From Candidatus Electrothrix sp. GW3-4 (GTDB lineage: Bacteria > Desulfobacterota > Desulfobulbia > Desulfobulbales > Desulfobulbaceae): 32,000 bases of DNA. This document shows, piece after piece, positions 1-17,080 of the stretch. Location: the NCBI RefSeq assembly GCF_037902255.1, contig NZ_CP147990.1, forward strand, positions 2,550,001 to 2,582,000, written 5' to 3'. A model generated the notes under the pieces. The model worked only from the letters and a program-made list of their open reading frames with translations. It was not told the DNA's origin and made no database searches. The position numbers and the translations under genes are program-made. How positions within the stretch are numbered: the first letter of the stretch is position 1; every line of letters starts with the position of its first letter.

Positions 1-174
1 GAAGATGATCGTGTCCCATGAAGACGAAGATGCACCATTATCATATTCATAACGAAATCCACCAGCCTTCATGTCTCCACATTTATTTTTACAAGCGATA
101 GGAAAAATAAAGAAAAACAAAATCAAAAAAATAGCCCGACCCTCTTTATTCAACCTGCTTTTATCTTTATACAT
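1..174 (-). CDS. Partial small signal-peptide / lipoprotein-like protein; candidate cognate immunity protein of the upstream RHS toxin (only the 5' 58 codons are in the window)
   Basis: Not in the ORF track because it runs off the left edge. Minus-strand ATG at 174..172, 8 nt after the RHS stop (TAG, 185..183). It reads MYKDKSRLNKEGRAIFLILFFFIFPIACKNKCGDMKAGGFRYEYDNGASSSSWDTIIF... This gives a basic n-region, a hydrophobic core, then Cys after FPIA (lipobox-like, not canonical). It has the same AT-rich composition as the toxin tip. No clear Shine-Dalgarno. Confidence 0.35.
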   Translation of the reverse strand, partial: MYKDKSRLNKEGRAIFLILFFFIFPIACKNKCGDMKAGGFRYEYDNGASSSSWDTIIF

Positions 175-182
175 AGCACATT

Positions 183-3100
183 CTATTTTATATATTTCTC
201 AATAAACCGAAATTTATCTGGATCTAATTCTCCAGGATCTAACGGAACAACATCGGGAAGATTACTTGAATTATCACGCCATAATGCCGTCTGTTCTGGA
301 CTTAGATTTCGTCTTGACGAACCGCCTGCTCTATTCCAAAAATGTTTTTTCCCCTCTCTTAGCCAACTAACTAGTAGTTCGGTATTTCTTCTACTGTATC
401 CACAACAGAAATGCCCTTTTAAATCTACCATTGCATCAAGAACAAAATTAATGGTCAGGTTAACAGTTCCTGCATCTGTTGTTAAACTCTTTGCGACATC
501 GTTTATTTTTCTACTTTTTGACGAACTAAAATTATACCCCATATAATTGAGAGCCGTTATTAAATTAATATTTGCTGGTCCAAGATCATGCCTTCCTGCG
601 TGAACTTGGGTCACTGCTTTTTGAGCAACATTCCCTCGTTTCCAAGATTCATCTATCCACCCAACTAAGCCTTGTGTTCCTGGAATCATATGTAAGCCTG
701 TTCCTGCTGTAACGTCTTGTAGATAATCATATATCCCCTTTAGTCCTATTTGAGTTGAATATTCATCCGCTATAAATTTTAACGAGGTCGCACGAAATAA
801 CATTTTACAACTTACAGAGGAAAGACCACCTAATTGACATTTTTTATCAACTCCTTCTCTTACCATTGGAGATAGTTGTCGTATTTTATTTTTAACTTTG
901 CTTGAATACTCCTCAAGCCCCAAATAATCCCATCCATTAATCCCATCATTCCCCACAAACCCATACAGATTCAGTCCGCCATCTTCCCCAATAGGATCCC
1001 TGCTCAACCACCGGCCAAGCTCAGGGGAATAATACCGATACCCGTAATAATACAACCCCGTCACACCATCGGCATACTTGGAGCTGAACCTGAACGGATT
1101 GGTCTCCGCATAGCTTCCCATAGCAGAAGTCAGGCCGCCGAAGGGTGCGTATTCGTAGGCGGCGGCCACAGAACCGTCCGAGCTGTCGAGGAGCTGGCCT
1201 ACGTTACCGTTGGCGTCATAAAGATAAACGTGAACTTTATCCGCCCCGTGATCAATCCGGGCTAAGATACCTCCAATACCTCCGGCACCCTGCAACGACT
1301 GACTCAGATCAAGGCCGTAGACATAACTCGCCGTAACAGCTCCGGCCCCGTCCAGTTCCTCAATCAGGTTCCAGCCGTCGTAGACAAAGAAGCGGGTTTC
1401 ATCAGCTTGCCAAGTTGAGCCGTCCCAGGCAGTTGTAATTTTCCGCGCTCTGCGGCCCATGTAATCATAAAGAAACTCAAGCTTCTCATCCCCGACAGCC
1501 GGTGTTTTCGGGGTAATGGTGATGAGCCGGTTCTCTTCGTTCCAGCTATAGGTGAAGGTTCCGTCGTCGGTAAGGCCGCCGTCGTTATCATACGCCGGAC
1601 TGGCCGCTGCCCCGTTCGTCTCCACGGAAGTATACTGATTCAGATCATTCGCCGTGTAATCGACCGAGGTATAGGTTCCCGTGTTGATGAGTTTCTGATC
1701 CGGCGGAACCGGCAGGGAGACGGAAAAGGCATCCCCGGAGGTCGTCATGGTTTTCCGACGCCCTATATTGTCATGGGTATAGTCGTACTGTGAAATTGTT
1801 GTGGTGTTATACGTATTCAGTACAGAAGTTTTCAGGTTACGATGGGTTTCGTAGGAATAGCCTGTTGATGCACCGGAGCCAAAGGTTGCGCTTTTTAGCA
1901 GGTGTGAGTTCGGCTCGTACCCGTACTGCACAGTATCGCTGTGCGTGCCGACATTCCAGGAAACACCTCCGAAGCGTCCGGTGCTGTCATAGCCATAGGT
2001 GACAGCATAGCTGCTGTCTGTGCTGAAGCCGGTGTTTCTGCCGGGTACCCCGGTGGTTTCATAGGAACGGGTGAGCGTCCGGTTGATCAGTCCTGTGATG
2101 CTTTCGCTGTCCGGTTGAAGAGCAGAGTTATAGGCAAAAGTACGGGTCCCGACGGCATCGGTCACTGTACTGCGTTGGCCAGTTCGATTGTAGGTGAATC
2201 CGATATCCGGGGTGGTGTCGGAATAATCAATCCCGGTCAATTCACCGGTATTGGGATCGTAACTGTAGGTGGTTGTGATGGCCGGAGTTCTGGCCCAGGT
2301 TCGGGTGTGCAGCCTGCCGCCTTCGAGATAGGTGTATTGCGTGCTCTTATTTTGTGCATCCTCCTTGCTTTCCAGCAGGCCGGAAGCCTCGTGGTAATGC
2401 CAGCGGGTTATATCGGCCAGCCCGTCGTTGGCAGACGGCCAGGTCGGGGAATCCCAGCCCTCACCACTCCGCCAGGTGTGCATGGCATCCATTCTGCCGT
2501 AGTTGTCGTATTCATAGCGGACAGGCGTTGTTCCACCCCAGGTATGGGTGACCCGATCAAAGTTGTCATAGAGAAAGTAGACCGTCCGGTTCTCCGCATC
2601 GGTCACTGAAGTTTTCCTGCCCGTGATTGGATCGTAGCCGTACTCTGTGCGCTTCGTTGCTGCGTCCTCAGTGTAATCAACCTGCCCCAGGGTGTTGTAA
2701 TGGGTGATGCTCTGGCCGGTGCGGGGATCGGTGACGCCGGTGCGTCGTTCCAGGGCGTCGTACTGGTAGGTGGTGGTGATGCCGGATTTGTCCGTGGAGG
2801 ATTTCAGCAGGCCGTACAGGGATTCCTGCACCGCATTCGTGTCCGAATCAAGATAATCCGTGATTTTAGTAATTGTATGAGAGGTCCGGTTGATATACCG
2901 CGACGAAACAGTCTCATTGTCGTGGATGTCCGTGCTCACGGTTTCGGCAATCAGGCCGCCTGCGCCCAGACCGGTCAGGCGAGTCCGGGTTTTGCCGGTG
3001 ATTGTCTCGGCAGATGAACCGAATTCGGCAAAGATACTCTGTACCTGTTCCTGCCACCACGCACCGTTATCCAGGAGAAAGGCTGTGCTGCTGCCGCTGA

Positions 3101-3875
3101 TCCGGTCGTCTGAGGCGGTTTCCAGGACCCCGCTGCTGTCGATATCCAGACCTGAACGGATTCTGTTGCCCAGTTCGTCGTACTGGTGCAGGGTGTCAGC
3201 CAGTCCCGGCGCAGTTGTTCGGATCAGCTGCCCTTTGTCGTTGTAAAAATTCTCCGAGACTTCCGTGCCCAGATAACCCGGCTTTTCGGTCTTCACTGTC
3301 CGTCCGGCCAGGTCTGTTGTGGTTTTCTCCCAGACCGGTGAGGAAGCGGTTCCGCTATGCACCTCTGTCCAGATGCTGCCGTCGCTGTTCACCCCGTAGC
3401 TGTAGAAGCGGGGCACAACGCCGCTGCCGGTCACGGATCTGGTTCGACCATCCAAATAGGTTTCTGTGATTTCGGTGATGTTACCGGGCCGGGTTTCGGT
3501 GGTGATCCGACCTCCTGAAGCATAATCGTAGTTGGTGGTCAGGTTCCTGCTGTCGGTCCGGCTGATGATCCTGCCGGACAGGTCGTACTGGCTGGAACTG
3601 CCCAGACTGAGACTGCCGGAGGACACGGTTTCGGTGAGCCGTCTGCCCGAAGCGTCGTAAGTATAATCAGTTACAACAGGCCCCTGTTCAGCAGCACGGC
3701 TTTGACTGATGAGGCGGCGCAGGCCGTCATAGCTGAAATCAGTCCGCACGCCGGTGGCGTTGATCTCGAAATTCTTCACGCAGCAGGACCAGTCTGTTTC
3801 AACAAGCGTGCCGTCCGAGGATGTCCGGTCGGTCACTCTGCCGAAATCATCAAATTCCTGCGCTGTCCAGCTCAC
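183..3875 (-). CDS. RHS/YD-repeat protein, C-terminal portion (repeat shell, RHS core end motif and variable toxin tip)
   Basis: YD/RHS repeats run throughout (YTYDASGRRLTE, YDYASGGRITTE, YQYDALERRTGVTD, YEYDNYGRMDAM...). The canonical core end YRYYSPELGRWLSRDPIGEDGGLNLYGFVGNDGINGWDYLGL finishes at codon 987. The frame is actually open upstream to about 4070; the listed start at 3875 is an internal GTG (..YQPVSWTAQ..). Confidence 0.9.
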   Translation of the reverse strand: MSWTAQEFDDFGRVTDRTSSDGTLVETDWSCCVKNFEINATGVRTDFSYDGLRRLISQSRAAEQGPVVTDYTYDASGRRLTETVSSGSLSLGSSSQYDLSGRIISRTDSRNLTTNYDYASGGRITTETRPGNITEITETYLDGRTRSVTGSGVVPRFYSYGVNSDGSIWTEVHSGTASSPVWEKTTTDLAGRTVKTEKPGYLGTEVSENFYNDKGQLIRTTAPGLADTLHQYDELGNRIRSGLDIDSSGVLETASDDRISGSSTAFLLDNGAWWQEQVQSIFAEFGSSAETITGKTRTRLTGLGAGGLIAETVSTDIHDNETVSSRYINRTSHTITKITDYLDSDTNAVQESLYGLLKSSTDKSGITTTYQYDALERRTGVTDPRTGQSITHYNTLGQVDYTEDAATKRTEYGYDPITGRKTSVTDAENRTVYFLYDNFDRVTHTWGGTTPVRYEYDNYGRMDAMHTWRSGEGWDSPTWPSANDGLADITRWHYHEASGLLESKEDAQNKSTQYTYLEGGRLHTRTWARTPAITTTYSYDPNTGELTGIDYSDTTPDIGFTYNRTGQRSTVTDAVGTRTFAYNSALQPDSESITGLINRTLTRSYETTGVPGRNTGFSTDSSYAVTYGYDSTGRFGGVSWNVGTHSDTVQYGYEPNSHLLKSATFGSGASTGYSYETHRNLKTSVLNTYNTTTISQYDYTHDNIGRRKTMTTSGDAFSVSLPVPPDQKLINTGTYTSVDYTANDLNQYTSVETNGAAASPAYDNDGGLTDDGTFTYSWNEENRLITITPKTPAVGDEKLEFLYDYMGRRARKITTAWDGSTWQADETRFFVYDGWNLIEELDGAGAVTASYVYGLDLSQSLQGAGGIGGILARIDHGADKVHVYLYDANGNVGQLLDSSDGSVAAAYEYAPFGGLTSAMGSYAETNPFRFSSKYADGVTGLYYYGYRYYSPELGRWLSRDPIGEDGGLNLYGFVGNDGINGWDYLGLEEYSSKVKNKIRQLSPMVREGVDKKCQLGGLSSVSCKMLFRATSLKFIADEYSTQIGLKGIYDYLQDVTAGTGLHMIPGTQGLVGWIDESWKRGNVAQKAVTQVHAGRHDLGPANINLITALNYMGYNFSSSKSRKINDVAKSLTTDAGTVNLTINFVLDAMVDLKGHFCCGYSRRNTELLVSWLREGKKHFWNRAGGSSRRNLSPEQTALWRDNSSNLPDVVPLDPGELDPDKFRFIEKYIK
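186..914 (-). other. Variable C-terminal toxin (CT) domain of the RHS protein, 243 aa, family not recognised
   Basis: It begins immediately after ...WDYLGL (EE codons at 909-914). The composition switches from the GC-rich YD shell to AT-rich sequence at about 950. I can see no catalytic motif of a known toxin class. Confidence 0.55.
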
Positions 3876-4353
3876 CGGCTGATAGCTGCTCCCGTCGTAG
3901 ACCAGGGTCTGCTGAAATACCCCTTTACCCAGGCTGTCGCTGATGCTTTCTTCTTTACTCGTCTTCAGAGCAATGCCCGCTGGCGAGCTTTCCGTACCAT
4001 GTACCGTCGTGACCCGTTCGTCCGTGCCTGTGCCCGGTGTGAAGACCTGGCTGCCGACATCAAAGCTCCCTGTTCATAGGTGGTGGTTGTCAGCCGTCCG
4101 TCCGATGAAAGCACGGATTGCAGCCTGCCTGCGAAGATGCTGCCGTCTTCAGGATAATAGGTCGTGACCGTGCGCAGGTTGGCCGGATCACCAAAGGACG
4201 TGGCCTGGGCAGTGGCGATCTCGCTGATCTCCTGCCTGCTGCCTGAGCCATCAACGGAGTAGACAACGTATTTCCGGGAGGTGACAATACCGCCCGTGGT
4301 TTCTGTCGTAATTCTGGGACGATTTTTATCCTCGTCCAGATCCGAATCACCGG

Positions 4354-7300
4354 TTAATGCTGTGGGATCGTAGTTATAGCTTGTGACACGGGCATTGGCC
4401 CTCTGGCTGATATCCCCAGATCCAGCCAGCTCGAATATTGGGCCGCAATCCGGCCCTGGCTGTCGTATTCGTAATATTCCCAGGAACCGTCTGGATTTTC
4501 GACGGACTTCAGTTTGGAATAACTGCCCGGATTATTGCTGTCTTCGTAATAGGTGAAGCTTGTGACCAGATTGTCACCGTCCGAGTCGTCGGCCTGATTA
4601 AGCAGTTCCTCGCCCCAAGGGAATTCTTTGTAGGTTCGCTCAATCACCGAGGATATATGACCGGAACTGTTTTTCACGATCTCCCGCCGAACGATGGTCT
4701 CACCGACAACCTGCTCGGAGCGTTCGCTTATCCGCTCACCGTCCGCCTCGCTGAGAGTCCAGGCCCCGGTGTCTTTATCATTGAAATATTCTGTAACCGA
4801 AGAATCGCTTCCCCGGGTCTCGGTAATCCGCAGCCGCTCGCTCACTGTCGGCAGCATATCCGGATTTTCAATCTGAAAGGCGACAAAGGGGACTGCGACG
4901 GGGTTCAGGGTGTACAGCCCGTCGACTTGCCCCGCGATGTCATCGGGACAGTACAGACTGACTGTGTACCGGTATTCGTTTTCCGTGGTTATATCGACAA
5001 AGGTCTTGGCTGTGAGAATTTGGCGCAATGCGTCGTTTGCATCGTAGTACACCTCGTTATCCCTGACCAGGGACGAGAGGTACAGAGCTTCAGGAGAGTA
5101 GAGTTGCGCAGAAACACTGTCCGAACGGAGGAGCAGGCTGCCTGCCGGATTGCCGTCTGTGGTTTTGCCCAGCGATATGGCGAAATCCACACTGGAGAGC
5201 CTGTCACTGCTGCTGCCTTCTATCGACAAAGGGCAATAGCCTTCATTGCATTCCTGACATCCGATTGGAACCTCTGCGTCTTTGTACACGCAACCGTTGT
5301 AAGAAGCCCGGACTGTTACGGTGCCGCTGCCTGAGTTCTCATCAACGGTCAGCACACCGGTGCCGGGATCTATGGCAGCTATAATTTTTCCGGTTTCATC
5401 ATTTGGTTGCTCAGCAACAATGGACCATTCCAGATCATTCGCCAGTTCTTCAGGGGATGTCTGCGCCTTGATTGTGACCGTTTCCCCCTGCATGACCGGA
5501 ATCTTTTCTTTCAGATTTTTGATGTACAGGTAGTCGATGGGGTCTTCTTCTGACAGAACCAATGTCATTTCGTTGCTTTTGGTGCCGTCAAGACGGCCTG
5601 GTCCATAGTCGTCTACAAATATAGCTGCGGTATATGTTTTGGAAGGGTCAAACTGCGTTTCTCTACTTATGACAGGCGGGGCAAGGGTAACAGGATCAAT
5701 TGGTATTACCGTAAAAGAAGTACCATCTTCAAATATAGTCAGATTTACTCTCCCCGGCTGATACCCATCGTAAGGAGGAATAAGCTGGAAAGGAACCTCG
5801 ACATCGCATCGAGTTAAACCATTCTGATTCACAGCGATGGGTATAGATGAGTCTAAGGTGACAGACAAAGGAATTATCACAAAATATTGAGATGTTTCTC
5901 CGGGAGTATCCTCAGTTAAGGTACAGTAGCATCCCGAACTACTCTGATATTCCCTGACGCGGTCTTCCCATGTATACTCGGCGTCCACATACCAGTATTC
6001 ACCCACATCTGGAGCTTCTTTGTTCAGAGCGGCGTACACATGCCCATATTCTGTGTTCTCGGTAGGAGCTAGCACATCTCCATTAAACGTAAGCGTAATC
6101 CCTGTAAGGGTAGAACCAGTAAAGTATTCTGTTTTACCAACGATGTCATTACAGGTACCACATCCCGAGATTACCTCATCCTGTTCTTTCATCTCATAAA
6201 GCCAAAAATACAAATCGAATGTACCACCATCTGGTTGATAACCGAATCCATAAACCCATAACAAAGCTTCTGAATCAGGAGGATCATCCCCGTAGCAGTT
6301 ACCTATAGCCCATTCTCTCCTATTCGTTGTAATATTGAATTGTTCCTCCAATCCTGAGGAGCTGACTGTCACTGTATATTCCGCATCAGGTGTGCCACCA
6401 CTATAACCGGCAAAAGATATTGGAACATAATTAGATTGAAGGACCAGAGGACCGGAATATTCCGTTGCGAATTGTTCATACGAAAAAGGTGGGGAACCGA
6501 CAGAATATTCCTCGATAGGAACAAGCAATGCGGGGCGATTATCGCTATTGGGATGAGTACAGGTTTCATTATTCAGAGGAGCTGCCGCACCGACCTCTAC
6601 CGTTACCGTAACATTGGATATTGGATTTTGATACTCATCATTGACAGTTAGGAATGCTGTGCCACTAAAATTTATCATATAACAGACAAATGGACTATCA
6701 GGGCCACACATGTCCTCTTCTAAATTAATCTCCGCTGGGTCACCAGGAAATCCGTACGCGGAAAATATCGTCTTATACGAAGGAATATTCGCAGGCCAGC
6801 ACTCAACAACATTGAGTCCAACCTGCTGTGTGTTCAGCCCGGTCTCCAGCCAACCAATCGGATTGGCTGCGGTACTGGTACCGAGAATAAGTTCGACAGA
6901 GGCCTTGCCGCTGCTATCGGTCGTAACCGTCAGTACTGTTAAACCGCCGACAAAGGTCCCGCCGCCCTTAGCAACCTGAAAGACAACCTGCGTATCGGCA
7001 ACCGGCTCATCATTTTCATCCAGGATTGTAACTTCCAGTGCTTGAGCAAGCTGTTGTCCGACGATTCCCTGCTGGTAATCCGTGCTCTCTGTTTTGATAA
7101 TTCGCTCTGACGGCAGAGCGAGAGTTGCTGCATCTGCTTCGAGGTTCAGCTCCACAGCGGAATCTGCCGCATAGACCGCCATTGTATCAGCTGCAAAAGC
7201 ATCCGAACGAACTTCAGGGAGCTTTTTCTCCGGCTGTTTTCCATAGGTAATAACCCGTTGATGTCCCCGGTTATCCATCATGATCATGAAAGGACTACCG

Positions 7301-7452
7301 GAAGTCAGCACCTCTTTCGGCAGGGTTAGTTCCATCTTTTTTTCAATGGTATTGTCCGATGATTCGGCAAGGCAGAACCTTGCTGCCCCGGAACAGAAAA
7401 GAACGATCGTAAAAAAGACGAACAAAATATGGCGATATTTTCTCTGATACAT
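4354..7452 (-). CDS. N-terminal portion of the RHS protein: signal peptide, Ig-like domains, first YD repeats
   Basis: Signal peptide MYQRKYRHILFVFFTIVLFCSGAARFCLAES. Invasin/intimin-type Ig-like segment at about 6868-7080 (LEVTILDENDEPVADTQVVFQVAKGGGTF..DSSGKASVELILGT). Big_2-like segment at about 5285-5500 (GETVTIKAQ..GTGVLTVDENSGSGTVTVRASYNG). The last ~60 codons become YD repeats (FTYYEDSNNPGSYSKLKSVENPDGSWEYYEYDSQGRIAAQY). AGGA lies 7 nt upstream of the ATG. The terminal ISARGPMPVSQAITTIPQH* looks like out-of-frame read-through. Confidence 0.8.
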   Translation of the reverse strand: MYQRKYRHILFVFFTIVLFCSGAARFCLAESSDNTIEKKMELTLPKEVLTSGSPFMIMMDNRGHQRVITYGKQPEKKLPEVRSDAFAADTMAVYAADSAVELNLEADAATLALPSERIIKTESTDYQQGIVGQQLAQALEVTILDENDEPVADTQVVFQVAKGGGTFVGGLTVLTVTTDSSGKASVELILGTSTAANPIGWLETGLNTQQVGLNVVECWPANIPSYKTIFSAYGFPGDPAEINLEEDMCGPDSPFVCYMINFSGTAFLTVNDEYQNPISNVTVTVEVGAAAPLNNETCTHPNSDNRPALLVPIEEYSVGSPPFSYEQFATEYSGPLVLQSNYVPISFAGYSGGTPDAEYTVTVSSSGLEEQFNITTNRREWAIGNCYGDDPPDSEALLWVYGFGYQPDGGTFDLYFWLYEMKEQDEVISGCGTCNDIVGKTEYFTGSTLTGITLTFNGDVLAPTENTEYGHVYAALNKEAPDVGEYWYVDAEYTWEDRVREYQSSSGCYCTLTEDTPGETSQYFVIIPLSVTLDSSIPIAVNQNGLTRCDVEVPFQLIPPYDGYQPGRVNLTIFEDGTSFTVIPIDPVTLAPPVISRETQFDPSKTYTAAIFVDDYGPGRLDGTKSNEMTLVLSEEDPIDYLYIKNLKEKIPVMQGETVTIKAQTSPEELANDLEWSIVAEQPNDETGKIIAAIDPGTGVLTVDENSGSGTVTVRASYNGCVYKDAEVPIGCQECNEGYCPLSIEGSSSDRLSSVDFAISLGKTTDGNPAGSLLLRSDSVSAQLYSPEALYLSSLVRDNEVYYDANDALRQILTAKTFVDITTENEYRYTVSLYCPDDIAGQVDGLYTLNPVAVPFVAFQIENPDMLPTVSERLRITETRGSDSSVTEYFNDKDTGAWTLSEADGERISERSEQVVGETIVRREIVKNSSGHISSVIERTYKEFPWGEELLNQADDSDGDNLVTSFTYYEDSNNPGSYSKLKSVENPDGSWEYYEYDSQGRIAAQYSSWLDLGISARGPMPVSQAITTIPQH

Positions 7453-7551: not shown

Positions 7552-8082
7552 TTACGGCGTCTCTTGTCCGTTAAGGAGTAGAAATAAAATTGGCGGCAGC
7601 ACCATAGACGGAAAATCATCAGAGTCGCCCGGATCGGTACCGCGCCCGACTTCAAAACCATCGCTGTACCCGTCACCGTCTGCATCATAATCCAGCAAAT
7701 TGATCTTTCCGTCATTATCAATATCGCTGTCCCACTCCTCACCCCAGTAGGCAACCTCTTCTCCGTCATCCAGGCCGTCGCCGTCCGTATCAGCGACATA
7801 GGGGTCTGTGCCATACAATAAGACCTCCTCGCCATTCCCTAAACCGTCATTATCAGAATCCTGTGGTGTGACGGTCATGGTCTTTCGGTTGCCCATAAGA
7901 TCATAGGTATAATCAAAAACAGTCCCTGTTGACTCTTGAGCCTGCTCAAGATAACCAATCGTACTGTAATCATAATAAATAATCTTTGAAAATACAGCAG
8001 AAGGAATAGTGAAAATTAATAGCCAGATAACGGACACTATTTTCAGGACGGATAACAGGTGGGGCGTTTTTCGATCTGTCAT
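7552..8082 (-). CDS. Small signal-anchored protein with one YD repeat and thrombospondin-type-3-like Ca-binding Asp repeats
   Basis: I prefer the ATG at 8082 (MTDRKTPHLLSVLKIVSVIWLLIFTIPSAVFS = signal/anchor) to the track's GTG at 8148. YD repeat: TGTVFDYTYDLMGNRKTMTV. DxDxDG-type repeats: DSDNDGLGNGEE, DTDGDGLDDGEE, DIDNDGKINLLDYDADGDGYSDGFE. It is co-oriented with the RHS gene and ends 99 nt upstream of it. Confidence 0.65.
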   Translation of the reverse strand: MTDRKTPHLLSVLKIVSVIWLLIFTIPSAVFSKIIYYDYSTIGYLEQAQESTGTVFDYTYDLMGNRKTMTVTPQDSDNDGLGNGEEVLLYGTDPYVADTDGDGLDDGEEVAYWGEEWDSDIDNDGKINLLDYDADGDGYSDGFEVGRGTDPGDSDDFPSMVLPPILFLLLNGQETP

Positions 8083-8353
8083 TATAGAATAAGGGGTTGT
8101 ATTATTCTTCAGTATCAAGACGCATATTCTGTAGATTTCTACAAACACTACTCACGAATCAACTTTTAAGTCAATAAAAATAATTAATTATCAGCTTCAC
8201 CTTGAATGGTGTTTAGAAATTTCTCTGTGCCACAGGAAAATTTCTATGCTATTTAATTACATTAACAACCAAGCAAATAGGATGGAATTTCAGTTAAGGG
8301 AGGAGAGAGGGACGCATTTCCCAAAAGTCGGAATGTGTGTGTTGACCGCAAAC

Positions 8354-9112: not shown

Positions 9113-9943
9113 TTATTTTTTTTCCTTCTCCTTCTCCTTCTCCTTCTCCTGAAGGGAGGATATAATCTGATCTGCCTTTTTAAATCCAGGAAGAACGCGT
9201 CCATCTGGCATGATCAAGGTCGGAGTGGAGGCGATATAGAACTTCTTGGCTAAGGTGATATTCTTCTCAACGATATCAGTATCGCAGTCTGGTGCAGGCA
9301 AAGGCTTTTTGTTCAGGCTGTCTTCCAGGAGGGCTATAGCCTTCTCATTCTCGCCTTTCAACTTGGTACAGACAATGGTTTGCGCCTTGGACTTGGCATT
9401 CGGGTGCATAGCCAAGGGAAACATTTTAATAAAAAAGGCGATATCAGGGCGCTGCGCAATAACTTTTTTCATTTCATGGTGGAGCCTACCGCAGTATGTA
9501 CACTCTGGATCATCAAACACAATAATCTTATTTTTCGCAGCAGCATCGCCAAGAATAAGGACGTCATCCAGAGGGATCTCCGAGCGATCAACCTTATTCA
9601 TTTTAACAAAATTTTCCTGCGTCACATTCTCATTATTCTTCAGGCGAATCACGTTACCACTGATCAGGTAGCTCTTGGAAAAATCAAGATAGAACGGAAG
9701 CTTCTGGCCGTTATAGACAGCCTCTACATCCCAAAGCCCTGGCACTTCGCTGCGTTTGACGTCCAGGACTTCGCTAACCTTGCCTTTGAGCAAACGGGCA
9801 ACCTCGTCTCGGTTGACAGAATGGCAGTCGCGGCAGTCCCCAGCACCGCAACCGGCTTCTTGGAACCCCATTGCCTGACTGCCAGAGAGCAAGGTAACAA
9901 GAAAAAAAGAAAGAAAAAGTTTATTGCGCTTCATAATCGACAT
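9113..9943 (-). CDS. Periplasmic DsbC/DsbG-family thiol:disulfide interchange protein with an additional N-terminal CxxCH motif
   Basis: Signal peptide (MKRNKLFLSFFLVTLLSGSQAMG). Thioredoxin-fold active site DDPECTYCGRLH. DsbC-like N-terminal region. GCGAGDCRDCH directly follows the signal peptide. C-terminal tail QEKEKEKEKEKK. Confidence 0.8.
   Translation of the reverse strand: MSIMKRNKLFLSFFLVTLLSGSQAMGFQEAGCGAGDCRDCHSVNRDEVARLLKGKVSEVLDVKRSEVPGLWDVEAVYNGQKLPFYLDFSKSYLISGNVIRLKNNENVTQENFVKMNKVDRSEIPLDDVLILGDAAAKNKIIVFDDPECTYCGRLHHEMKKVIAQRPDIAFFIKMFPLAMHPNAKSKAQTIVCTKLKGENEKAIALLEDSLNKKPLPAPDCDTDIVEKNITLAKKFYIASTPTLIMPDGRVLPGFKKADQIISSLQEKEKEKEKEKK
9124..9150. repeat. Hexanucleotide microsatellite (CCTTCT) x4.5 encoding the (EK)n tail
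   Basis: Read directly: ccttct ccttct ccttct ccttct cct. It is in frame within the 3' end of the DsbC-like gene. Confidence 0.9.
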
Positions 9944-10653: not shown

Positions 10654-13110
10654 TTACCGCTCCTGTTGCAATTTCCTGAGTCTCTGCTGCAGCCCTTTAT
10701 CCAGGGGATCAAGCAGTAACGCCTGCTCGTACTCCTCAATTGCCTGCCCCTTATTCCCTTTTTTAAAAAATATCTCACCAAGAGAAATATGAAAAGGGGC
10801 ATAACGGGGCAGATGCCGAAGACCAAGCCGCAGGGCCTCTTCTGCCTCTGCCTCTTTATTTTTCGTGCGATAATACCGGGCCACTTCGATAAAATAACGA
10901 GGAAGCACCTTGGGTTCGTTTTCAATGAAGTCAAGTGAGCGCTTCAAGACAAACGCATATTCTTCTGTTTTCTTTTCCTTTTTTATCTGATCCCAAAAGC
11001 CAAACCAGACAGAGGTCCGCTCAGGTAACGTTGCGGCCACTTCCTTCTGGTCAAGCCCATACTGAGTCAGCAAGGGATAAAAGGGACGCAACAGATTGGC
11101 ATTCTGCTCAAGCTCTTTTCTCAACCTCTCCAGGCCCTGTCTTCTTGGATCACGAGAAAGCTCAAATTTCGCCCAGTTTTGAAAGGATACGGCCCTTTGC
11201 TCAGCTCTTCTATACCCGGTCTCCAACAAATTCTGCGCTTGTATGGGATCAACAGAAGTCATCAAATGACCAAGCTGTTGCAGATAGACAAAATGCATGG
11301 GTTGCCGCAGTACCGCCTCTCCAGACAGGGCAATAGCTTCGTTGTTTTTCCGCTGCCATCTCTTGACGTTTGCCAAAGCATAGGCATACATCCCGCTCAA
11401 GGAATCAATATTCTTTGCCTCTTCAAGCAGCCCAACCATTTTTTCTGCCTTGACAGCAGGCTCCAGGGAGCTTACGGCGAACACCAACCTTGCCTGCTGA
11501 TACTTTCTTTCTGCCAACACCATTCGTCCTTGCAAACACAAGGTGACGCAAAAAAGAAGAAGCGTCATTATAAACATCCCCCCTTTCATTCGCTGACTCG
11601 AGGTCACTGGCACCAATAAGGTGCGGGAATTCTGAGAGGAGCATCGAGTGTTTCCGGCCGAGACCAGCAGCGCGCAACAAAAAGCAAAATAAAGGCCGTT
11701 TGCACCATTATGCAAATTAAAATCAAAAAGGCTATAGACAAGCATCCCGGCAACACTACTCAATGCGCCCATTGCAAGAAGATATGATACGCTCTCCTTA
11801 CGCACCTGAATCTGCCGACAGCCTCCCCTTAATACGCTCACAATAAAGCACAGGCCTATGACACCGGCTATGAGCCCACCATCTGTGAGCAGTTCTAAAA
11901 AATCATTATGCGCGTGCTCATAAAGCAGGTCGTCAGGAAGGGTTTTATAGCTCGGAAAGATATCCACAAAGGTACCGAAACCACTTCCTGTGAAAGGAAA
12001 AGCCGCTATTATCCTCAGGGCGTCAGCCCAAACCAACAATCGATCATCCTTAATCCCACCAGCTTTGCTATCAATAATATTCCTGAAACGCTCAAGGATG
12101 GGCTCCCAGCTGTACCAGCTCACGATAATCAGCAGACCAATCGCCAGAACGAGCAAAGGGAGCGTTCCCATTCTTCTCTGCTGCCGACGAATAAGAAGAA
12201 AAAAAAGCAGTACGCCGCAGACAATACTGAGAATCCCCCCCCGTGACTGGGTCAGAAAAACGGAAGCAAGGAGAACAACAGTACCAAAACCCCAAAAAAG
12301 ATGCACTGTTGCACCATTGTCAGAGAAAAAGGCCACTATTTTCTCCCTGATGGTTTCTCCATGCTTGAGTGAAGGACGGTGCAATACAAATTGCGAGAGC
12401 ACAAGCGGACAGAGCATAACCATGAAGCCTGCATAGTGGTTCTTATACACCCAGGGCCCAAAAGCTGTTTTTCCTTCTGTCAATTTACGAAACCAGAAAA
12501 GAGTATCAGGGGCCGTCACCCTCTGTAAAATAGAAAAAAAGGCAATAAAGACGGCTAATGCACTGACAACTTGAACCGTCCTCAGCAATCTACGACTGCT
12601 CGTGAGCAGTTGAACGGTTATCAAATAAAAAAGCGCATATGAACTGACCCGGAGTAGCTCTTGCAGGGTTGCCTTCCGGTTGATAGTCAAGGGAATCCAA
12701 TTACCGAGGTGAGGCAATGCAGACAGGTCAAGAACCGGCTGATAGGCATGAAAGATATTTGGCGCAATCATGCGCACCAGAGGAGCAGGCAGAGAAAGGG
12801 ACTGGAACGCCATCCAGCTGAGCAACAAAACCAGGGCCAGCAAGCCTGGAGAACGATAATAAGTGCCTTTTGCCTTGGCAAAAGGAAAGAAGAGCCAGAT
12901 TCCAGCAAGAACGACAAGCAACTCCAGCGTGAACAAAGACCAGGTTTCTGTCGTGCCAAAGGCCAGCGGGGCAAAAAATAAGGTGAGCAAAAAAAGGAAA
13001 AAGGGCCCTCCTCTCTGCCCTCCCTGTGGCCGCTCAGCTCTTCTTTTGTTCCGTATAATAGCCCCCCTTCCCCTTACGAGAAGAGTAGGAATAATATCCG
13101 TAATATCCAT
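10654..13110 (-). CDS. Polytopic Wzy_C / O-antigen-ligase-like membrane protein fused to a C-terminal TPR domain
   Basis: Many TM helices. Wzy_C-type signature region YEHAHNDFLELLTDGGLIAGVIG. The C-terminal ~300 aa are TPR-like (..EAEEALRLGLRHLPRYAPFHISLGEIFFKKGNKGQAIEEYEQALLLDP). The listed ATG overlaps the upstream gene by 77 nt and has no SD, so the true start is uncertain. Confidence 0.8.
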   Translation of the reverse strand: MDITDIIPTLLVRGRGAIIRNKRRAERPQGGQRGGPFFLFLLTLFFAPLAFGTTETWSLFTLELLVVLAGIWLFFPFAKAKGTYYRSPGLLALVLLLSWMAFQSLSLPAPLVRMIAPNIFHAYQPVLDLSALPHLGNWIPLTINRKATLQELLRVSSYALFYLITVQLLTSSRRLLRTVQVVSALAVFIAFFSILQRVTAPDTLFWFRKLTEGKTAFGPWVYKNHYAGFMVMLCPLVLSQFVLHRPSLKHGETIREKIVAFFSDNGATVHLFWGFGTVVLLASVFLTQSRGGILSIVCGVLLFFLLIRRQQRRMGTLPLLVLAIGLLIIVSWYSWEPILERFRNIIDSKAGGIKDDRLLVWADALRIIAAFPFTGSGFGTFVDIFPSYKTLPDDLLYEHAHNDFLELLTDGGLIAGVIGLCFIVSVLRGGCRQIQVRKESVSYLLAMGALSSVAGMLVYSLFDFNLHNGANGLYFAFCCALLVSAGNTRCSSQNSRTLLVPVTSSQRMKGGMFIMTLLLFCVTLCLQGRMVLAERKYQQARLVFAVSSLEPAVKAEKMVGLLEEAKNIDSLSGMYAYALANVKRWQRKNNEAIALSGEAVLRQPMHFVYLQQLGHLMTSVDPIQAQNLLETGYRRAEQRAVSFQNWAKFELSRDPRRQGLERLRKELEQNANLLRPFYPLLTQYGLDQKEVAATLPERTSVWFGFWDQIKKEKKTEEYAFVLKRSLDFIENEPKVLPRYFIEVARYYRTKNKEAEAEEALRLGLRHLPRYAPFHISLGEIFFKKGNKGQAIEEYEQALLLDPLDKGLQQRLRKLQQER

Positions 13111-15340
13111 ACCCGGCGGTCTTTTTTGTCACACGATTGAGCACAAAGCCCAGCAGATGCGCCTGACTTTCCCGTAATTTTTTTATGCCGCTGTCCAGCA
13201 TATCAAAAGTGGTTTTTCCCGAGCGCAGGACAGTCACCGTCCCGTCAACCAGACCAGCTAAGAGCAGACTGTCTGTCACCTGCTGTACCGGCGGAGAATC
13301 AAGGAGGACAAAATCAAAGCGTTCTATAGACTTAAGCAGTAATGTTTTCATCCTTTTTGAGCCCAATAACTCAGCTGGATTCGGTGGTATCGGACCAGAG
13401 GGGAGCAGTGAGATTCCGCTGAGCGGCAGTTGTTTGATCAAGCTCGGTTGCTGCTCATCCGTGTTGCCAGAAAGGTAATTACTCAACCCGTAGGAATTAT
13501 TCACTTCAAACATAGAATGCTGTCTCGGGCGCCGCATATCACAATCGACAATCAGAATCTTTTTATCATTCTGTGCCAGGATATAGGCAAGATTCTTGGT
13601 TGTGGTACTCTTCCCCTCCTGCTGCATCATACTGGTAATAAGGAGGGTGCGCGGTGGATGATCCGGTGTGGAAAGAAGCAAACTGGAGCGAATAAGCCTA
13701 TAGCTCTCGCTAAAGGCGGAAAGGGGGTTATCCTGGATAAATGTCTCAATATTTTTATTCTTCTTTGACAGCTCTTCCACTGCACCAAGAACGGTCATTC
13801 CGTACCGTTTTTCCAGCTCCTCACCAGCTGACACCGTATTATCGAGGTAATCAATAAAAAAAACCAAGGCTATTCCAGTGCCCAAACCAATGATCAGCCC
13901 GACCATCAACTCTTTCTTTTTATTTGGTTTTGAGGGAGCAAGGGGAAGATCAGCCTTTTTTATTGCCCAGATTCTGATATCCATAGCCTGAGCCGTAACG
14001 TTGGTCTTCTTGATACTACTGGACAATGCATCGTATACGGTCCGATTCATTTCCTTATCCCGATTCAGGATGGTGTACTGAACAAATCGCTCGTTCATAT
14101 CCTGCATTTCTGCCTTGGTTTCCTTCATCATCTTGGCCAAATCTCTGACCCGAGTTTTGGCAAGCTCATAGCTGTTTTTGGCGACCTCAATGACTCGCTC
14201 CACCTCTGCCCGTTTCTTTTTAAAAAGAAGTTCCTGATCAGCCCGGGCTTTGATCATCATCGGGTGTTTTTCGCCGTACCTCTTGGACAACTCTCTGATA
14301 TGCTGCTCTGCGGCAAAGAGTTCGCCACGCAGGGTCTGTAACTCGCCATTATTGGCAAGCAAGGGAATGGCCTCAAGTTTTTTATCGTTTCTCCCTGCTT
14401 TCTTTATCTGGTGATAAACAGCTGCATACTTTTTCTCTTCTGTTTGCGCGGCTGAAAGCTCTGAGCTGAACTGAGAAAGACGCTCTGGGAGGACAGCGAG
14501 TTTATTCTCCACTGTCACAATATCGTGTTTCCGCATGTAAGCCTGCAAGGCCCTTTCTGAATCCTCCAACTTCCTTCTTTCCTCATCGGCCTTAACAGTC
14601 ATCCAGTTCAGACTGTGCCTTGTGGTACTTGTTTTGATATCTAAAATTTCTTCAATATAGGCCTGGACCACGCCATTAGCGACAAGTCGGGCAATTTCCG
14701 GTACCCGATGCGTATAACTGATATTGACAATCTTTGTATCGCGCACAGGAATAAGTGTGAGAGCACCCTGAATCATGGCCGCAATCTGTTCGGCATCACT
14801 TTTCGGCTCACTCTGAGGGATTACTTTATCCTGCTTCCCCTCATCAGCTGCATGGGGAATATCCAGTGTGGGGGCTGATCCCGTTAATGAGGACAGAAAA
14901 GATGTTACAGAAGAAACAATTCCAGCAAAAAAAGATCGCACGGACTCTCTGACAGAACCCATGACATCCGAACCAGCAGAATTATTTCCTAAAAAATAAT
15001 CTCTGTACTCGGTATCCAGCTGCTGATTTCTCACAACCCTGAGAGCGACATTAAAGCTGCGTATCAACTCGAACTGGGTTGCCTTAAAATCAGGGTCCCA
15101 GGTGATGTACGTTGCCAATCCTTCAAGGCGTCCTTTCTCTTGATTTTTTTCAACCAAGACCTGCGTTGTTGCCGTATACAACGGGACCTTCGAAAAAGTA
15201 GATAATGCCGTTGTCAGAAAGATTATTGCAGCAACGGTCATAATCAACCATTTCCGTTTTTGGATAACACGGAGATAATCAATGAGATGCTTCGAGGTTG
15301 GTTGCTGAAAACTCTCAGTTATAGCTTCTTCAGGATACAT
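13034..15340 (-). CDS. Polysaccharide co-polymerase / tyrosine autokinase (Wzc/GumC/EpsG-like, fused Wzz + BY-kinase)
   Basis: N-terminal Wzz topology (TM - periplasmic coiled coil - TM). C-terminal P-loop ATPase with Walker A (QQEGKSTTTKNLA), Walker A' (ILIVDCDMRRP) and Walker B (FVLLDSPP). Tyr-rich tail GYGYYGYYSYSS..GGYY. Confidence 0.85.
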   Translation of the reverse strand: MYPEEAITESFQQPTSKHLIDYLRVIQKRKWLIMTVAAIIFLTTALSTFSKVPLYTATTQVLVEKNQEKGRLEGLATYITWDPDFKATQFELIRSFNVALRVVRNQQLDTEYRDYFLGNNSAGSDVMGSVRESVRSFFAGIVSSVTSFLSSLTGSAPTLDIPHAADEGKQDKVIPQSEPKSDAEQIAAMIQGALTLIPVRDTKIVNISYTHRVPEIARLVANGVVQAYIEEILDIKTSTTRHSLNWMTVKADEERRKLEDSERALQAYMRKHDIVTVENKLAVLPERLSQFSSELSAAQTEEKKYAAVYHQIKKAGRNDKKLEAIPLLANNGELQTLRGELFAAEQHIRELSKRYGEKHPMMIKARADQELLFKKKRAEVERVIEVAKNSYELAKTRVRDLAKMMKETKAEMQDMNERFVQYTILNRDKEMNRTVYDALSSSIKKTNVTAQAMDIRIWAIKKADLPLAPSKPNKKKELMVGLIIGLGTGIALVFFIDYLDNTVSAGEELEKRYGMTVLGAVEELSKKNKNIETFIQDNPLSAFSESYRLIRSSLLLSTPDHPPRTLLITSMMQQEGKSTTTKNLAYILAQNDKKILIVDCDMRRPRQHSMFEVNNSYGLSNYLSGNTDEQQPSLIKQLPLSGISLLPSGPIPPNPAELLGSKRMKTLLLKSIERFDFVLLDSPPVQQVTDSLLLAGLVDGTVTVLRSGKTTFDMLDSGIKKLRESQAHLLGFVLNRVTKKTAGYGYYGYYSYSSRKGKGGYYTEQKKS

Positions 15341-15566
15341 TCTAAAATGTTATGCATAACAAAAGACAAAACTTTAGCTCATGCTTGATGAAGTTTTTCA
15401 GAGCTCGCGCTCAACAACGCGAACATAGGTAGCAAAATTATGCAAGAGGCTTTACTGACAGGCAGGGGTTGCCCTGGGTATACGGATTACTCCGCTTGTA
15501 CTTCAAAAGAAAGAAGAGCAGAGAGAGGTTATTTTCTTTCCTTATCAGAGAAGGGCCAGAAAGACC

Positions 15567-17018
15567 TCAAAAAAAGCTTTCAGGCACAACAATAACGTCC
15601 TCAGGCCGGACCAGGGTATCATGATCAACATCTTCGAGCACCTGCTTTGTTCCGTTGATCATACGATTAATTTTGATCCTCGATTCAGCAGCAATACCGG
15701 TAAAACTGCCTGCCAATGAGACCATTTTGAGCACAGTCGTATTTCGACCGCACGGGTACGCTCCAGGCCTGTTAACCTGCCCGGTGATATAGCAGACGGC
15801 TTCTTTTTTAGCGGCACTTGCAGGTACGACAACGACATCTTCAGGTAATAATAAGGTATCCTTGTTGACTGCTTGAAGTACCTGCTTATTGCCATTAACC
15901 TGTCGATTAATCTCAATTCCTGATTCCAGCGCCTTCTCGGTAAAGCCGCCCGCTCGAGTCAACAGTTTAAGAATGCTCATTCTCCTTGAACAAGGGTACG
16001 CACCTGGTCGATTCACTTCACCGGTAATATAACAGAGCGATTCTTCTTTTTTACTTATTGTGCGTTCGGGCACAATAATGACATCATCAGGCTGCACCAG
16101 TGTATCCTGATCTACATGTTGCACAACATGCTTCACCCCATTGACCGTCCGATTAATCTTCATTCCAGACTCAAGTGCCCTTTCGGTAAAGCCTCCTGCC
16201 AAAGAGAGGATCTTCAGGACCGTGGCATTACGAGCACAGAGGTATTCCCCCGGCTGATTGACCTCACCGGTAATGAAGCACACAGCGCCTTCAGCGATTG
16301 AAACGGTATCTCCCCCTTGAATTTGAATATTCTGTTGAGGATCACCTGTTCTTATCAATCGGTCAAGGTTAATAGAGATGTTTTCCTGTGTACCATTCCC
16401 CTGCCTTTTAATCGTTGCCGTTTGCCCCGCATTATCTTTTAACCCGCCGACTTGAGAAAGCAACTCCAACAGTGTTATCGGACCGTTCAACTCAACAAGC
16501 CCTGGATTATGCACCGGCCCGAGGACAACAACCTTTTTGCTTTTGAACTGTTCTATAAAGATCGTCACCTGAGGTTCAATTATATAGCCATCAGCCAACG
16601 CCACCTCAATACGCTCTGCTGCTGCTGATATTCCAAGACCACCGACGTACACTTGACCAATCAAAGGAAAATCGATTGCGCCTCCCTCGGTGACCCGTAC
16701 CTTAACGGTTAATTCCTCATGATCGTAGACTTTGATAGAAAGAACATCTCCTGCCCCGATCGCATATTCAGCCTGCGTCCGAGTCCTGCTTGCAGTGCTG
16801 AGCTTCTGAGACCTTATTGAAGGCAACCTTGTCGCTGGCATCTGAGAGATCCTTGACCGGGGTATTGGCAGAGCCCCACGAGTATTACCAGGAGACCCAA
16901 CATAGCCAGCAGCCAGACCAGAGGATACGACGATCGGGACCAACAGCGCAATAATGGGCAATAAAATTATCAACCGTACTGTTCTGCTTTTCAGATAGCC
17001 TGTTCTTTTCTTCCACAT
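15567..17018 (-). CDS. Polysaccharide export protein (Wza/Poly_export family) with four SLBB modules
   Basis: Poly_export-like segment (YAIGAGDVLSIKVYDHEEL..DFPLIGQVYVGGL). One diverged SLBB follows, then three near-identical ~81-aa SLBB repeats (C[FY]ITG[EQ]VN.PG.Y.C.....L......AG.FT......). Confidence 0.85.
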   Translation of the reverse strand: MWKKRTGYLKSRTVRLIILLPIIALLVPIVVSSGLAAGYVGSPGNTRGALPIPRSRISQMPATRLPSIRSQKLSTASRTRTQAEYAIGAGDVLSIKVYDHEELTVKVRVTEGGAIDFPLIGQVYVGGLGISAAAERIEVALADGYIIEPQVTIFIEQFKSKKVVVLGPVHNPGLVELNGPITLLELLSQVGGLKDNAGQTATIKRQGNGTQENISINLDRLIRTGDPQQNIQIQGGDTVSIAEGAVCFITGEVNQPGEYLCARNATVLKILSLAGGFTERALESGMKINRTVNGVKHVVQHVDQDTLVQPDDVIIVPERTISKKEESLCYITGEVNRPGAYPCSRRMSILKLLTRAGGFTEKALESGIEINRQVNGNKQVLQAVNKDTLLLPEDVVVVPASAAKKEAVCYITGQVNRPGAYPCGRNTTVLKMVSLAGSFTGIAAESRIKINRMINGTKQVLEDVDHDTLVRPEDVIVVPESFF

Positions 17019-17080
17019 GACTCGCTAGCTTCGCATAAAATTATCAGAGAATCGATAGAAACCTTCTTCGGTTGAAGCGG

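Follow-up and report, generated by a model that had tools for sequence, protein, structure and literature searches.

Sec-dependent polymorphic toxins of the RHS/WapA type with arrays of orphan tips were reportedly described by Zhang et al. in 2012 and Koskiniemi et al. in 2013. Among the effectors of type VI secretion systems (T6SS), glycoside hydrolases of peptidoglycan are paired with periplasmic immunity proteins, as in Tse3/Tsi3 and Tge/Tgi, and it is well known that RHS- and T6SS-associated toxins degrading peptidoglycan are countered by immunity proteins in the periplasm. The locus described here lies in a 32,000-nucleotide stretch (hereafter, the window; positions 2,550,001 to 2,582,000 of NZ_CP147990.1) from the cable bacterium Candidatus Electrothrix sp. 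GW3-4, which has a closed genome of 4.64 Mb. In this window, an RHS gene on the minus strand ends in a C-terminal tip of 243 amino acids (aa; 186..914), and a small gene on the same strand follows, with the first 58 of its 136 codons inside the window (1..174). Sequence comparisons indicate that the two very probably form a toxin-immunity pair, and they point to the envelope or periplasm as the probable site of action.

Comparison with described toxin systems

The window gene resembles RHS/WapA-type polymorphic toxins (available part of PMC3150448) in having a signal peptide, a YD-repeat shell, a core motif, a tip of different GC content, and an adjacent putative immunity gene. Further RHS fragments and copies with other tips are also found downstream. 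The differences are that the host is a multicellular filamentous cable bacterium and that neither the tip family nor the immunity family has been characterized.

Among the T6SS effectors, Tse4 of Acinetobacter baumannii degrades peptidoglycan (available excerpt of PMC11796386), and in the SleB-like pair T6EC3/T6IC3 a single Glu is essential for toxicity, as seen with E108Q (available part of PMC11148199). The window pair would be similar to such hydrolase effectors in directing an antibacterial enzyme into the periplasm of a neighbor, with an immunity protein bearing an export signal encoded directly downstream. Some members of the tip family also carry a PAAR-like adaptor. However, the tip has no detectable sequence or profile similarity to SLT or GH73 domains, its structural resemblance is partial and not significant (TM-score at most 0.48), and its carrier in the window is an RHS protein with a Sec signal rather than a protein associated with PAAR or VgrG. 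Furthermore, the immunity family has an FG-GAP-like DxDxDG motif and no match above threshold in Pfam, NCBIfam, or PDB sequences.

TelC/TipC and the toxins of the Lipocone superfamily, a four-helix cone with conserved His (H2), Glu (H3), and Asp (H4) (PMC12419801), are comparable as helical tips of polymorphic toxin systems that act, probably also in the case of the window tip, outside the cytoplasm. The Lipocone toxins also have lipoprotein or transmembrane immunity proteins and occasional fusions to peptidoglycan-binding domains (PMC12419801). Unlike these toxins, the tip family has different conserved residues and lacks profile similarity to them.

The toxin tip and its family

The tip belongs to an RHS open reading frame (ORF) of 1230 aa (3875..183, minus strand, in the ORF list), which is annotated by NCBI as an 'RHS repeat-associated core domain-containing protein' (WP_339132906.1). 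Most of this ORF is an RHS/YD-repeat shell (915..3875, minus strand), in which Pfam RHS_repeat matches five stretches (E 5.7e-24) and TIGR01643 is also found (E 3.1e-12). The RHS-associated core domain TIGR03696 (NCBIfam) scores 77.5 bits (cut-off 32.5) over aa 909-987, corresponding to nt 1151-915, and the RHS_core match spans aa 878-986. The core domain ends precisely at ...NDGINGWDYLGL (motif RDPIGEDGGLNLYGFVGNDGINGWDYLGL), such that a DPxG...xDxxGL core motif stands directly before the tip (RDPIGEDGG...GWDYLGL/EEY). This agrees with a preliminary description of the window, made from the sequence alone, which had placed the end of the shell in a canonical motif through codon 987. The abrupt switch to AT-rich sequence that it reported for the following 243 codons (914-186) was also recovered, the tip having a GC content of 0.33-0.40 compared with 0.54-0.60 for the shell, with the change at about 900-1000.

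No recognizable toxin signature had been seen in the tip, and database searches gave the same picture. Searches of Pfam and NCBIfam (E<=1) and of PDB sequences (E<=10) gave no match to the tip, and the family profile returned only noise against PDB sequences (NheA, E 0.065). A word-indexed search found only two relatives, namely the same gene on a Logan contig and, in a JGI metagenome, a different RHS core followed by a tip of 50% identity. An exhaustive hidden Markov model (HMM) search of 1.84 billion representative proteins yielded 32 at E<=1e-3, including 20 at <=1e-10, and a profile search with a 26-sequence alignment yielded 109 clusters; loci with related tips were found with a 7-sequence alignment. 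The tip is thus not an orphan but a member of a family of more than 100 clusters, which is beyond what the preliminary description could see.

In most of the 32 proteins from the HMM search, the domain is C-terminal, and in one case it forms the end of a 2027-aa protein. Family tips are carried by RHS cores in P0004, P0005, P0017, P0029, L001, and L010/L011, while a Tox-PAAR-like/DUF4150 domain precedes the family domain in P0028 (E 1.5e-24) and P0080. The hosts include Desulfobulbaceae, Lentisphaeria, Verrucomicrobiales, Chryseobacterium, Thioploca, Pasteurella, and Myxococcaceae (a metagenome-assembled genome, MAG). The occurrence of family tips on unrelated RHS cores and on non-RHS carriers bears out the earlier reading of an exchanged polymorphic-toxin module. 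Overall, the tip family is real, rare, and unnamed, and judged by these architectures it behaves as a toxin module. T6EC2, which combines DUF4150 with an unannotated C-terminus, was considered as a published relative and rejected, as the available part of PMC11148199 presents it as an REase-like toxin, unrelated to the tip.

Many of the 109 clusters fall into subgroup B, which is more distant (22-31% identity to the tip) and whose members are fused to PG_binding_1, LysM, PG_binding_3, or DUF4150. PG_binding_1 is fused to the family domain in P0042, P0053, P0055, and P0071, LysM in P0044, P0057, P0064, and P0082, and PG_binding_3 in P0042. One family member bears the JGI name 'peptidoglycan hydrolase-like protein with peptidoglycan-binding domain'. 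Searches with tblastn found no match to a subgroup-B protein in phage genomes and none to the tip in plasmids, and an endolysin or plasmid origin is therefore unsupported. Subgroup B (e.g., P0053, P0055, and P0042) also has four conserved Cys, with a C..C pair before an ENFPY motif and the sequence PGEGCRVC near the C-terminus. These residues, which are absent from the subgroup of the window tip, suggest disulfides and hence an extracytoplasmic life of the subgroup-B proteins.

The candidate immunity gene and the exchangeable cassette

The tip ends at a TAG stop codon (185-183), and the next ATG (174-172) follows 8 nt further on, at the start of an ORF that leaves the window. Its beginning, MYKDKSRLNKEGRAIFLILFFFIFPIACKNKC..., comprises a basic n-region, a hydrophobic stretch of 14 residues that may act as anchor or signal, and Cys28. 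The preliminary description had listed this ORF as absent from the track, but NCBI annotates it as a hypothetical protein of 136 aa (WGN25_11390 / WP_339132904.1). The position of the ORF and the presence of a signal and a Cys were as described, whereas its lipoprotein nature is less certain because 'FPIAC' is a non-canonical lipobox with Pro at -3. The window protein may be either a lipoprotein or signal-anchored.

The full 136-aa protein was obtained from a 1.3-kb Logan contig (L002:788-1198) that matches the left end of the window at 99.8% identity, and an ENA metagenome contig (L003) has a 96%-identical immunity copy after a 95%-identical tip. Immunity homologs were also found directly 3' of tip homologs with only 27-35% identity to the window tip (L004, L005, L010/L011, L013, and L014). 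These represent five distinct contexts and at least two phyla besides that of the window. L004 is a Lentisphaeria MAG, and a protein-identical gene pair is present on a separate JGI metagenome contig (L012). L005 is a Verrucomicrobiales MAG with three tandem immunity copies (lipoboxes LLLQSC, GFASC, and LLISC). The others are JGI metagenome contigs, with two immunity copies on L014. Pairwise BLASTP comparisons of the immunity homologs gave E-values of 2e-13 and 1e-6. An HMM built without the window protein scored this protein at 53.7 bits (E 9e-19), and the best score among 2000 shuffles was 10.0 bits.

Every complete immunity copy has a basic N-terminus with either a hydrophobic/transmembrane anchor or a lipobox, and the family shares the motif GP..G(D/N).L.V...D.D.DG..(E/D)(I/V). 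Matches to FG-GAP and EF-hand are sub-threshold only. The conservation of the downstream ORF beside homologous tips and the export or anchoring features across its family thus uphold what the preliminary description had proposed on both counts. Its interpretation of the two genes as a toxin-immunity pair is likewise favored, given that the tip matches no characterized family and that the immunity gene is co-conserved with distant tips.

Comparison of the window with L003, which represents a related population, indicated very different levels of divergence along the locus. For the RHS core, the nucleotide identity is 77%, the synonymous divergence (dS) is about 2.0, and the ratio of nonsynonymous to synonymous divergence (dN/dS) is 0.04. 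The corresponding values are 95%, 0.16, and 0.17 for the tip and 97%, 0.22, and 0.09 for the immunity gene. The tip and immunity ORFs are both under purifying selection. Moreover, the contrast between a dS of 0.16-0.22 in these two genes and about 2.0 in the RHS core indicates that they travel as a single exchangeable cassette.

The Verrucomicrobiales locus has additional features. The three tandem lipoprotein immunity paralogs (L005:6683-8278) follow a single tip homolog that lacks RHS repeats, and the N-terminal region of this homolog shares sequence with ORFs at 2076-4154 and, more distantly, at 4076-5212. The latter ORF, located just upstream of the tip homolog, ends in a borderline SLT domain (20.4 bits against a cut-off of 21.3), and the distant likeness of its N-terminal region to that of the tip homolog was judged by eye. 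This arrangement suggests alternative wall-targeting heads on one carrier.

Conserved residues and structural model of the tip

Among 124 aligned domains of the tip family, the invariant residues are E51 (123/123), D110, G112, N115 (124/124), and G149. Further conservation is seen at D67 (98%), G188 (97%), A121 (95%), T120 (94%), Q66 (93%), and Y184 (93%), and no His or Cys is conserved across these domains. E51 (nt 764-762) is located in the motif LKFIADEY (tip residues 45-52; 759..782, minus strand), at the C-terminal end of helix 34-53. D110 (nt 587-585), G112, and N115 are located in the motif HDLGPANINLITA (tip residues 109-121; 552..590, minus strand), which contains the sole beta-hairpin, and residue 109 varies across the family (H, Y, N, R, F, or W). 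The invariant acidic and polar set of E51, D110, and N115 looks active-site-like.

An AlphaFold2 model of the tip from the 26-sequence alignment reached a pLDDT of 89.2 and a pTM of 0.86, and a run with two sequences only (pLDDT 53) was discarded. Thirteen segments of the model are helical, residues 110-117 form its single beta-hairpin (strands 110-111 and 116-117), and long hydrophobic helices are absent. A Glu at a helix end followed by a hairpin with D110, G112, and N115 is compatible with the lysozyme-like superfamily and not specific to it.

The model was compared with PDB and BFVD by Foldseek, with the top 50 matches listed for each library. Among the matches listed, the highest TM-scores belong mostly to lysozyme-like peptidoglycan hydrolases. 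The best partial match is to the family-1 lytic transglycosylase (SLT, PF01464, GH23) MltE/EmtA (6gi4; TMq 0.40/TMt 0.48), and others are to 6gi3, phi6 lysin (4dq7), a soil phage endolysin (9ms7), GH19 domains, and an Erwinia phage endolysin. The exceptions are an unrelated PDB chain (9n9j_7; TM 0.26/0.33) and two unnamed or uncharacterized BFVD entries. In both the tip and MltE, a Glu stands at the C-terminal end of a helix after a small hydrophobic stretch (IADEY in the tip and AIES in MltE), and a hairpin follows. Unlike the lytic transglycosylases, however, the tip has about 58 residues with several extra helices between this Glu and the hairpin, and its Asp110 has no counterpart in these single-Glu enzymes. 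The GLMQ and AYNxG motifs are also absent as such from the tip. The lysozyme-like fold assignment is thus a lead provided by the model rather than a result. The structure-based comparison that the preliminary description had called for produced no confident match to a characterized toxin family.

Proposed mode of action and alternative explanations

The N-terminal part of the RHS protein is encoded by a separate ORF of 1032 aa (4354..7452, minus strand; NCBI WGN25_11405). A Sec-type signal peptide (MYQRKYRHILFVFFTIVLFCSGAARFCLA/ES) was recognized in it by visual inspection, and it further contains an Ig-like Big_1 region (Pfam E 6e-7, under the gathering score) and the first YD-like repeats at its end. 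This ORF is the N-terminus of the same RHS protein as the 1230-aa ORF. The RHS gene occupies three reading frames split by two single-base frame changes, and three-frame translations indicated that the segment between them (4068..4417, minus strand) continues the RHS protein in the third frame. The 107-aa fragment P0144 terminates in the shifted tail that is seen at the first of the two sites.

Taken as one protein, the RHS product would span about 2,400 aa and be exported through the Sec pathway, with its YD-repeat shell, preceded by the signal peptide and the Ig-like domain, enclosing the 243-aa tip. By analogy with other RHS proteins, the tip would be released after the ...GWDYLGL core motif. 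It would then work as an enzyme outside the cytoplasm of the target cell, in the target's periplasm. The combination of an anchored or exported immunity family with the fusions of the toxin family to peptidoglycan-binding modules is the basis for assigning the site of action to the envelope. The most likely activity would be that of a lysozyme-like peptidoglycan hydrolase or lytic transglycosylase that cleaves glycan strands, with Glu51 at the helix end as the general acid and Asp110 and Asn115 on the hairpin completing the active site. The 136-aa immunity protein would be held in the membrane by a lipid or its N-terminal helix, and its beta-rich periplasmic domain with the FG-GAP-like DxDxDG motif would bind and inhibit the tip in the periplasm of producer cells and their kin. 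The tip and the immunity gene would move together as an exchangeable module. Cleavage of peptidoglycan glycans by the tip is a tentative assignment, and the chain as a whole, chemistry included, is put forward with the same reserve.

Several observations weigh against this proposal. For the fold, the Foldseek matches listed for the model (pLDDT 89) include nothing significant in PDB or BFVD, lysozyme-like or other, with E>=0.5 throughout. Pfam SLT has no match to 26 family members even at E<=10. Comparison of the 124-sequence family with a 5-sequence SLT profile by hhalign gave only E 0.098 (probability 0.6%), with E51 placed on the catalytic Glu in this non-significant local alignment. With single SLT sequences the E-values were 0.14-0.41, and with FlgJ GH73 the value was 0.48. 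For the family, the peptidoglycan-binding fusions are found in the distant subgroup B, and such fusions are also reported for lipid-II-targeting toxins (PMC12419801). Furthermore, subgroup-B toxins precede small proteins with three or four transmembrane segments (L016:5968-6336, L017:6158-6833, and L018:6098-6421), which are unrelated to the immunity family of the window. The subgroup-B members at these loci lack a signal peptide and have an N-terminus that is either peptidoglycan-binding or of unknown type, and their neighbors could be a second immunity type or holin-like partners. For the carrier, the two apparent frameshifts raise the possibility that this RHS copy is not expressed as one protein. 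The Sec signal is the only secretion or delivery machinery visible in the window. The 32 kb contain no T6SS genes, PAAR, or VgrG, and the RHS protein starts with the signal peptide and the Big_1 region.

The main rival explanation is that the tip acts on the outer face of the inner membrane, where its target, instead of the polymerized glycan, would be a lipid-linked precursor of the cell wall (lipid II or another undecaprenyl-PP-linked molecule) or a different lipid head group, in the manner of TelC, colicin M, and the Lipocone toxins. An all-helical fold with conserved acidic residues would suit such an activity, as would the membrane-anchored immunity proteins and the polytopic neighbors in subgroup B. 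Lipocone immunity proteins are likewise four-transmembrane, transmembrane, or lipoproteins, and the toxins can carry peptidoglycan-binding domains (PMC12419801). However, hhalign comparisons of the family with Min-Wnt (E 0.34) and ClaspCone-2 (E 0.27) fell far short of the positive control of these two against each other (E 1.3e-4), and none of six family accessions was found in the 37 supplementary files of the Lipocone paper (PMC12419801). The family also has no conserved His to fit the Lipocone His/Glu/Asp pattern, TelC is not among the top 50 Foldseek matches in PDB, and the tip model has no long hydrophobic helices. An attack on lipid precursors is considered unlikely. A membrane-disrupting or pore-forming helical toxin, against which the immunity protein would shield the membrane, is less probable still. 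The all-helical fold, the membrane location of the immunity proteins, and weak Foldseek matches to helical bundles of the Bcl-2 family are in its favor, but these matches have TM-scores of 0.10-0.16 (query-normalized) and no hydrophobic helical hairpin is present in the 243 aa. In addition, the invariant positions are charged or polar in the manner of an active site, and fusions to LysM and PG_binding domains are unexpected for such toxins. The least credible candidate is an HNH/EndoVII (GH-E) nuclease acting in the cytoplasm. This identity was raised by weak Pfam GH-E (PF14410) matches in three family members (best E 0.0046) and by the HD...N...beta-beta-alpha arrangement at residues 109-124, which is superficially like an HNH finger. 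It was rejected, as the one match that was located (P0010; 14.5 bits against a cut-off of 25) falls in the C-terminal tail at residues 231-265, away from the HD motif, and position 109 is not fixed as His. Exported or membrane-anchored immunity proteins and fusions to peptidoglycan-binding domains also argue against action in the cytoplasm.

A different type of alternative is that the locus is a decaying or silent RHS copy. In this case, the frameshifts would be real, a signal-less 1230-aa fragment or nothing would be made, and the tip and immunity pair would persist mainly as a reservoir from which sequence recombines with the neighboring RHS copy. The splitting of the gene by two frame changes, the NCBI annotation of its pieces as separate proteins, and the presence of a second RHS copy (P0148) and RHS fragments (P0144 and P0149) just outside the window are consistent with this explanation. 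However, both frame changes coincide with runs of G on the coding strand (4417-4414, GGGG; 4070-4068, GGG), and homopolymers are the usual site of long-read assembly errors. The paralog P0148 is open across the second site (...TTTTYEQGSFDVGSQVF...). In addition, two A homopolymers each have a single-base indel between the window and L002, a contig assembled from a different run (SRR28154590) in the same accession series. Given the G-run sites, the read-through in P0148, and the homopolymer indels in L002, both frame changes are probably assembly errors. The purifying selection on the tip and the immunity gene is a further argument against a silent copy, which appears rather improbable, slightly more so than an attack on lipid precursors. 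The indels in L002 break the tip into a 166-aa product (P0001) and further short ORFs, and full-length tips can be missed in searches when protein databases contain fragments of this kind.

The surroundings of the cassette have the form of the usual RHS array with alternative tips. Past the immunity gene, L002 and L003 both continue with RHS fragments on the same strand, and the region left of the window is an RHS array (L002:1199-1279; NCBI WGN25_11355-11385). P0144 (WGN25_11385) exactly repeats the last part of the 1032-aa N-terminal ORF, P0148 is the second RHS copy with 1269 aa and a different unannotated tip, and P0149 is a further RHS fragment of 135 aa. On L010 (1956-4229) and L011 (2526-4799), a second RHS gene, with a PT-TG pre-toxin domain and a tip of another type, comes after the RHS-tip-immunity unit and makes this another array of alternative toxins.

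Novelty and biological significance

The general scheme of the cassette would not surprise specialists unless the chemistry of the tip turns out to be new. What is new are the tip and immunity families, neither of which has a Pfam or NCBIfam model or a solved relative. In the literature searched, no paper pairs RHS with Electrothrix and none names the family accessions tested; the cassette may represent an interbacterial toxin of a kind not yet described from cable bacteria. With more than 100 clusters, the invariant E51, D110, and N115, and a confident model, the toxin family is a tractable addition to the known interbacterial weapons, and the matching immunity family is added to the same catalog. 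The toxin family serves RHS proteins, PAAR-like T6SS spikes, and proteins with peptidoglycan-binding domains, and if it does act on peptidoglycan it would provide a new scaffold of cell-wall hydrolases.

Cable bacteria have a continuous periplasm common to the cells of one filament, which makes a periplasmic pair of toxin and antidote biologically interesting in these organisms. Because the cells share this compartment, such a pair could, if the proposed mode of action is correct, police filament membership and thereby provide kin discrimination of a multicellular body. A bolder, and rather unlikely, interpretation combines filament policing with an unrecognized envelope-acting fold and a new immunity family. 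The tip family would then be either a very divergent lysozyme offshoot, whose Glu/Asp pair is distributed across an inserted helical lobe, or a new class of enzymes with peptidoglycan or its precursors as substrate. The immunity side would be a periplasmic family built on a single FG-GAP-like loop of the calcium type.

Neighboring genes

Upstream of the RHS gene, the minus strand of the window encodes a small protein with calcium-binding TSP3 repeats (7552-8148) and a DsbC-type disulfide isomerase (9113-9943). Further along the same strand is a polysaccharide export cluster (10654-18574), which includes an O-antigen-ligase-like Wzy_C/TPR protein, a Wzz/GNVR co-polymerase of the tyrosine-kinase type, a Wza-like Poly_export/SLBB protein, and a beta-barrel porin.

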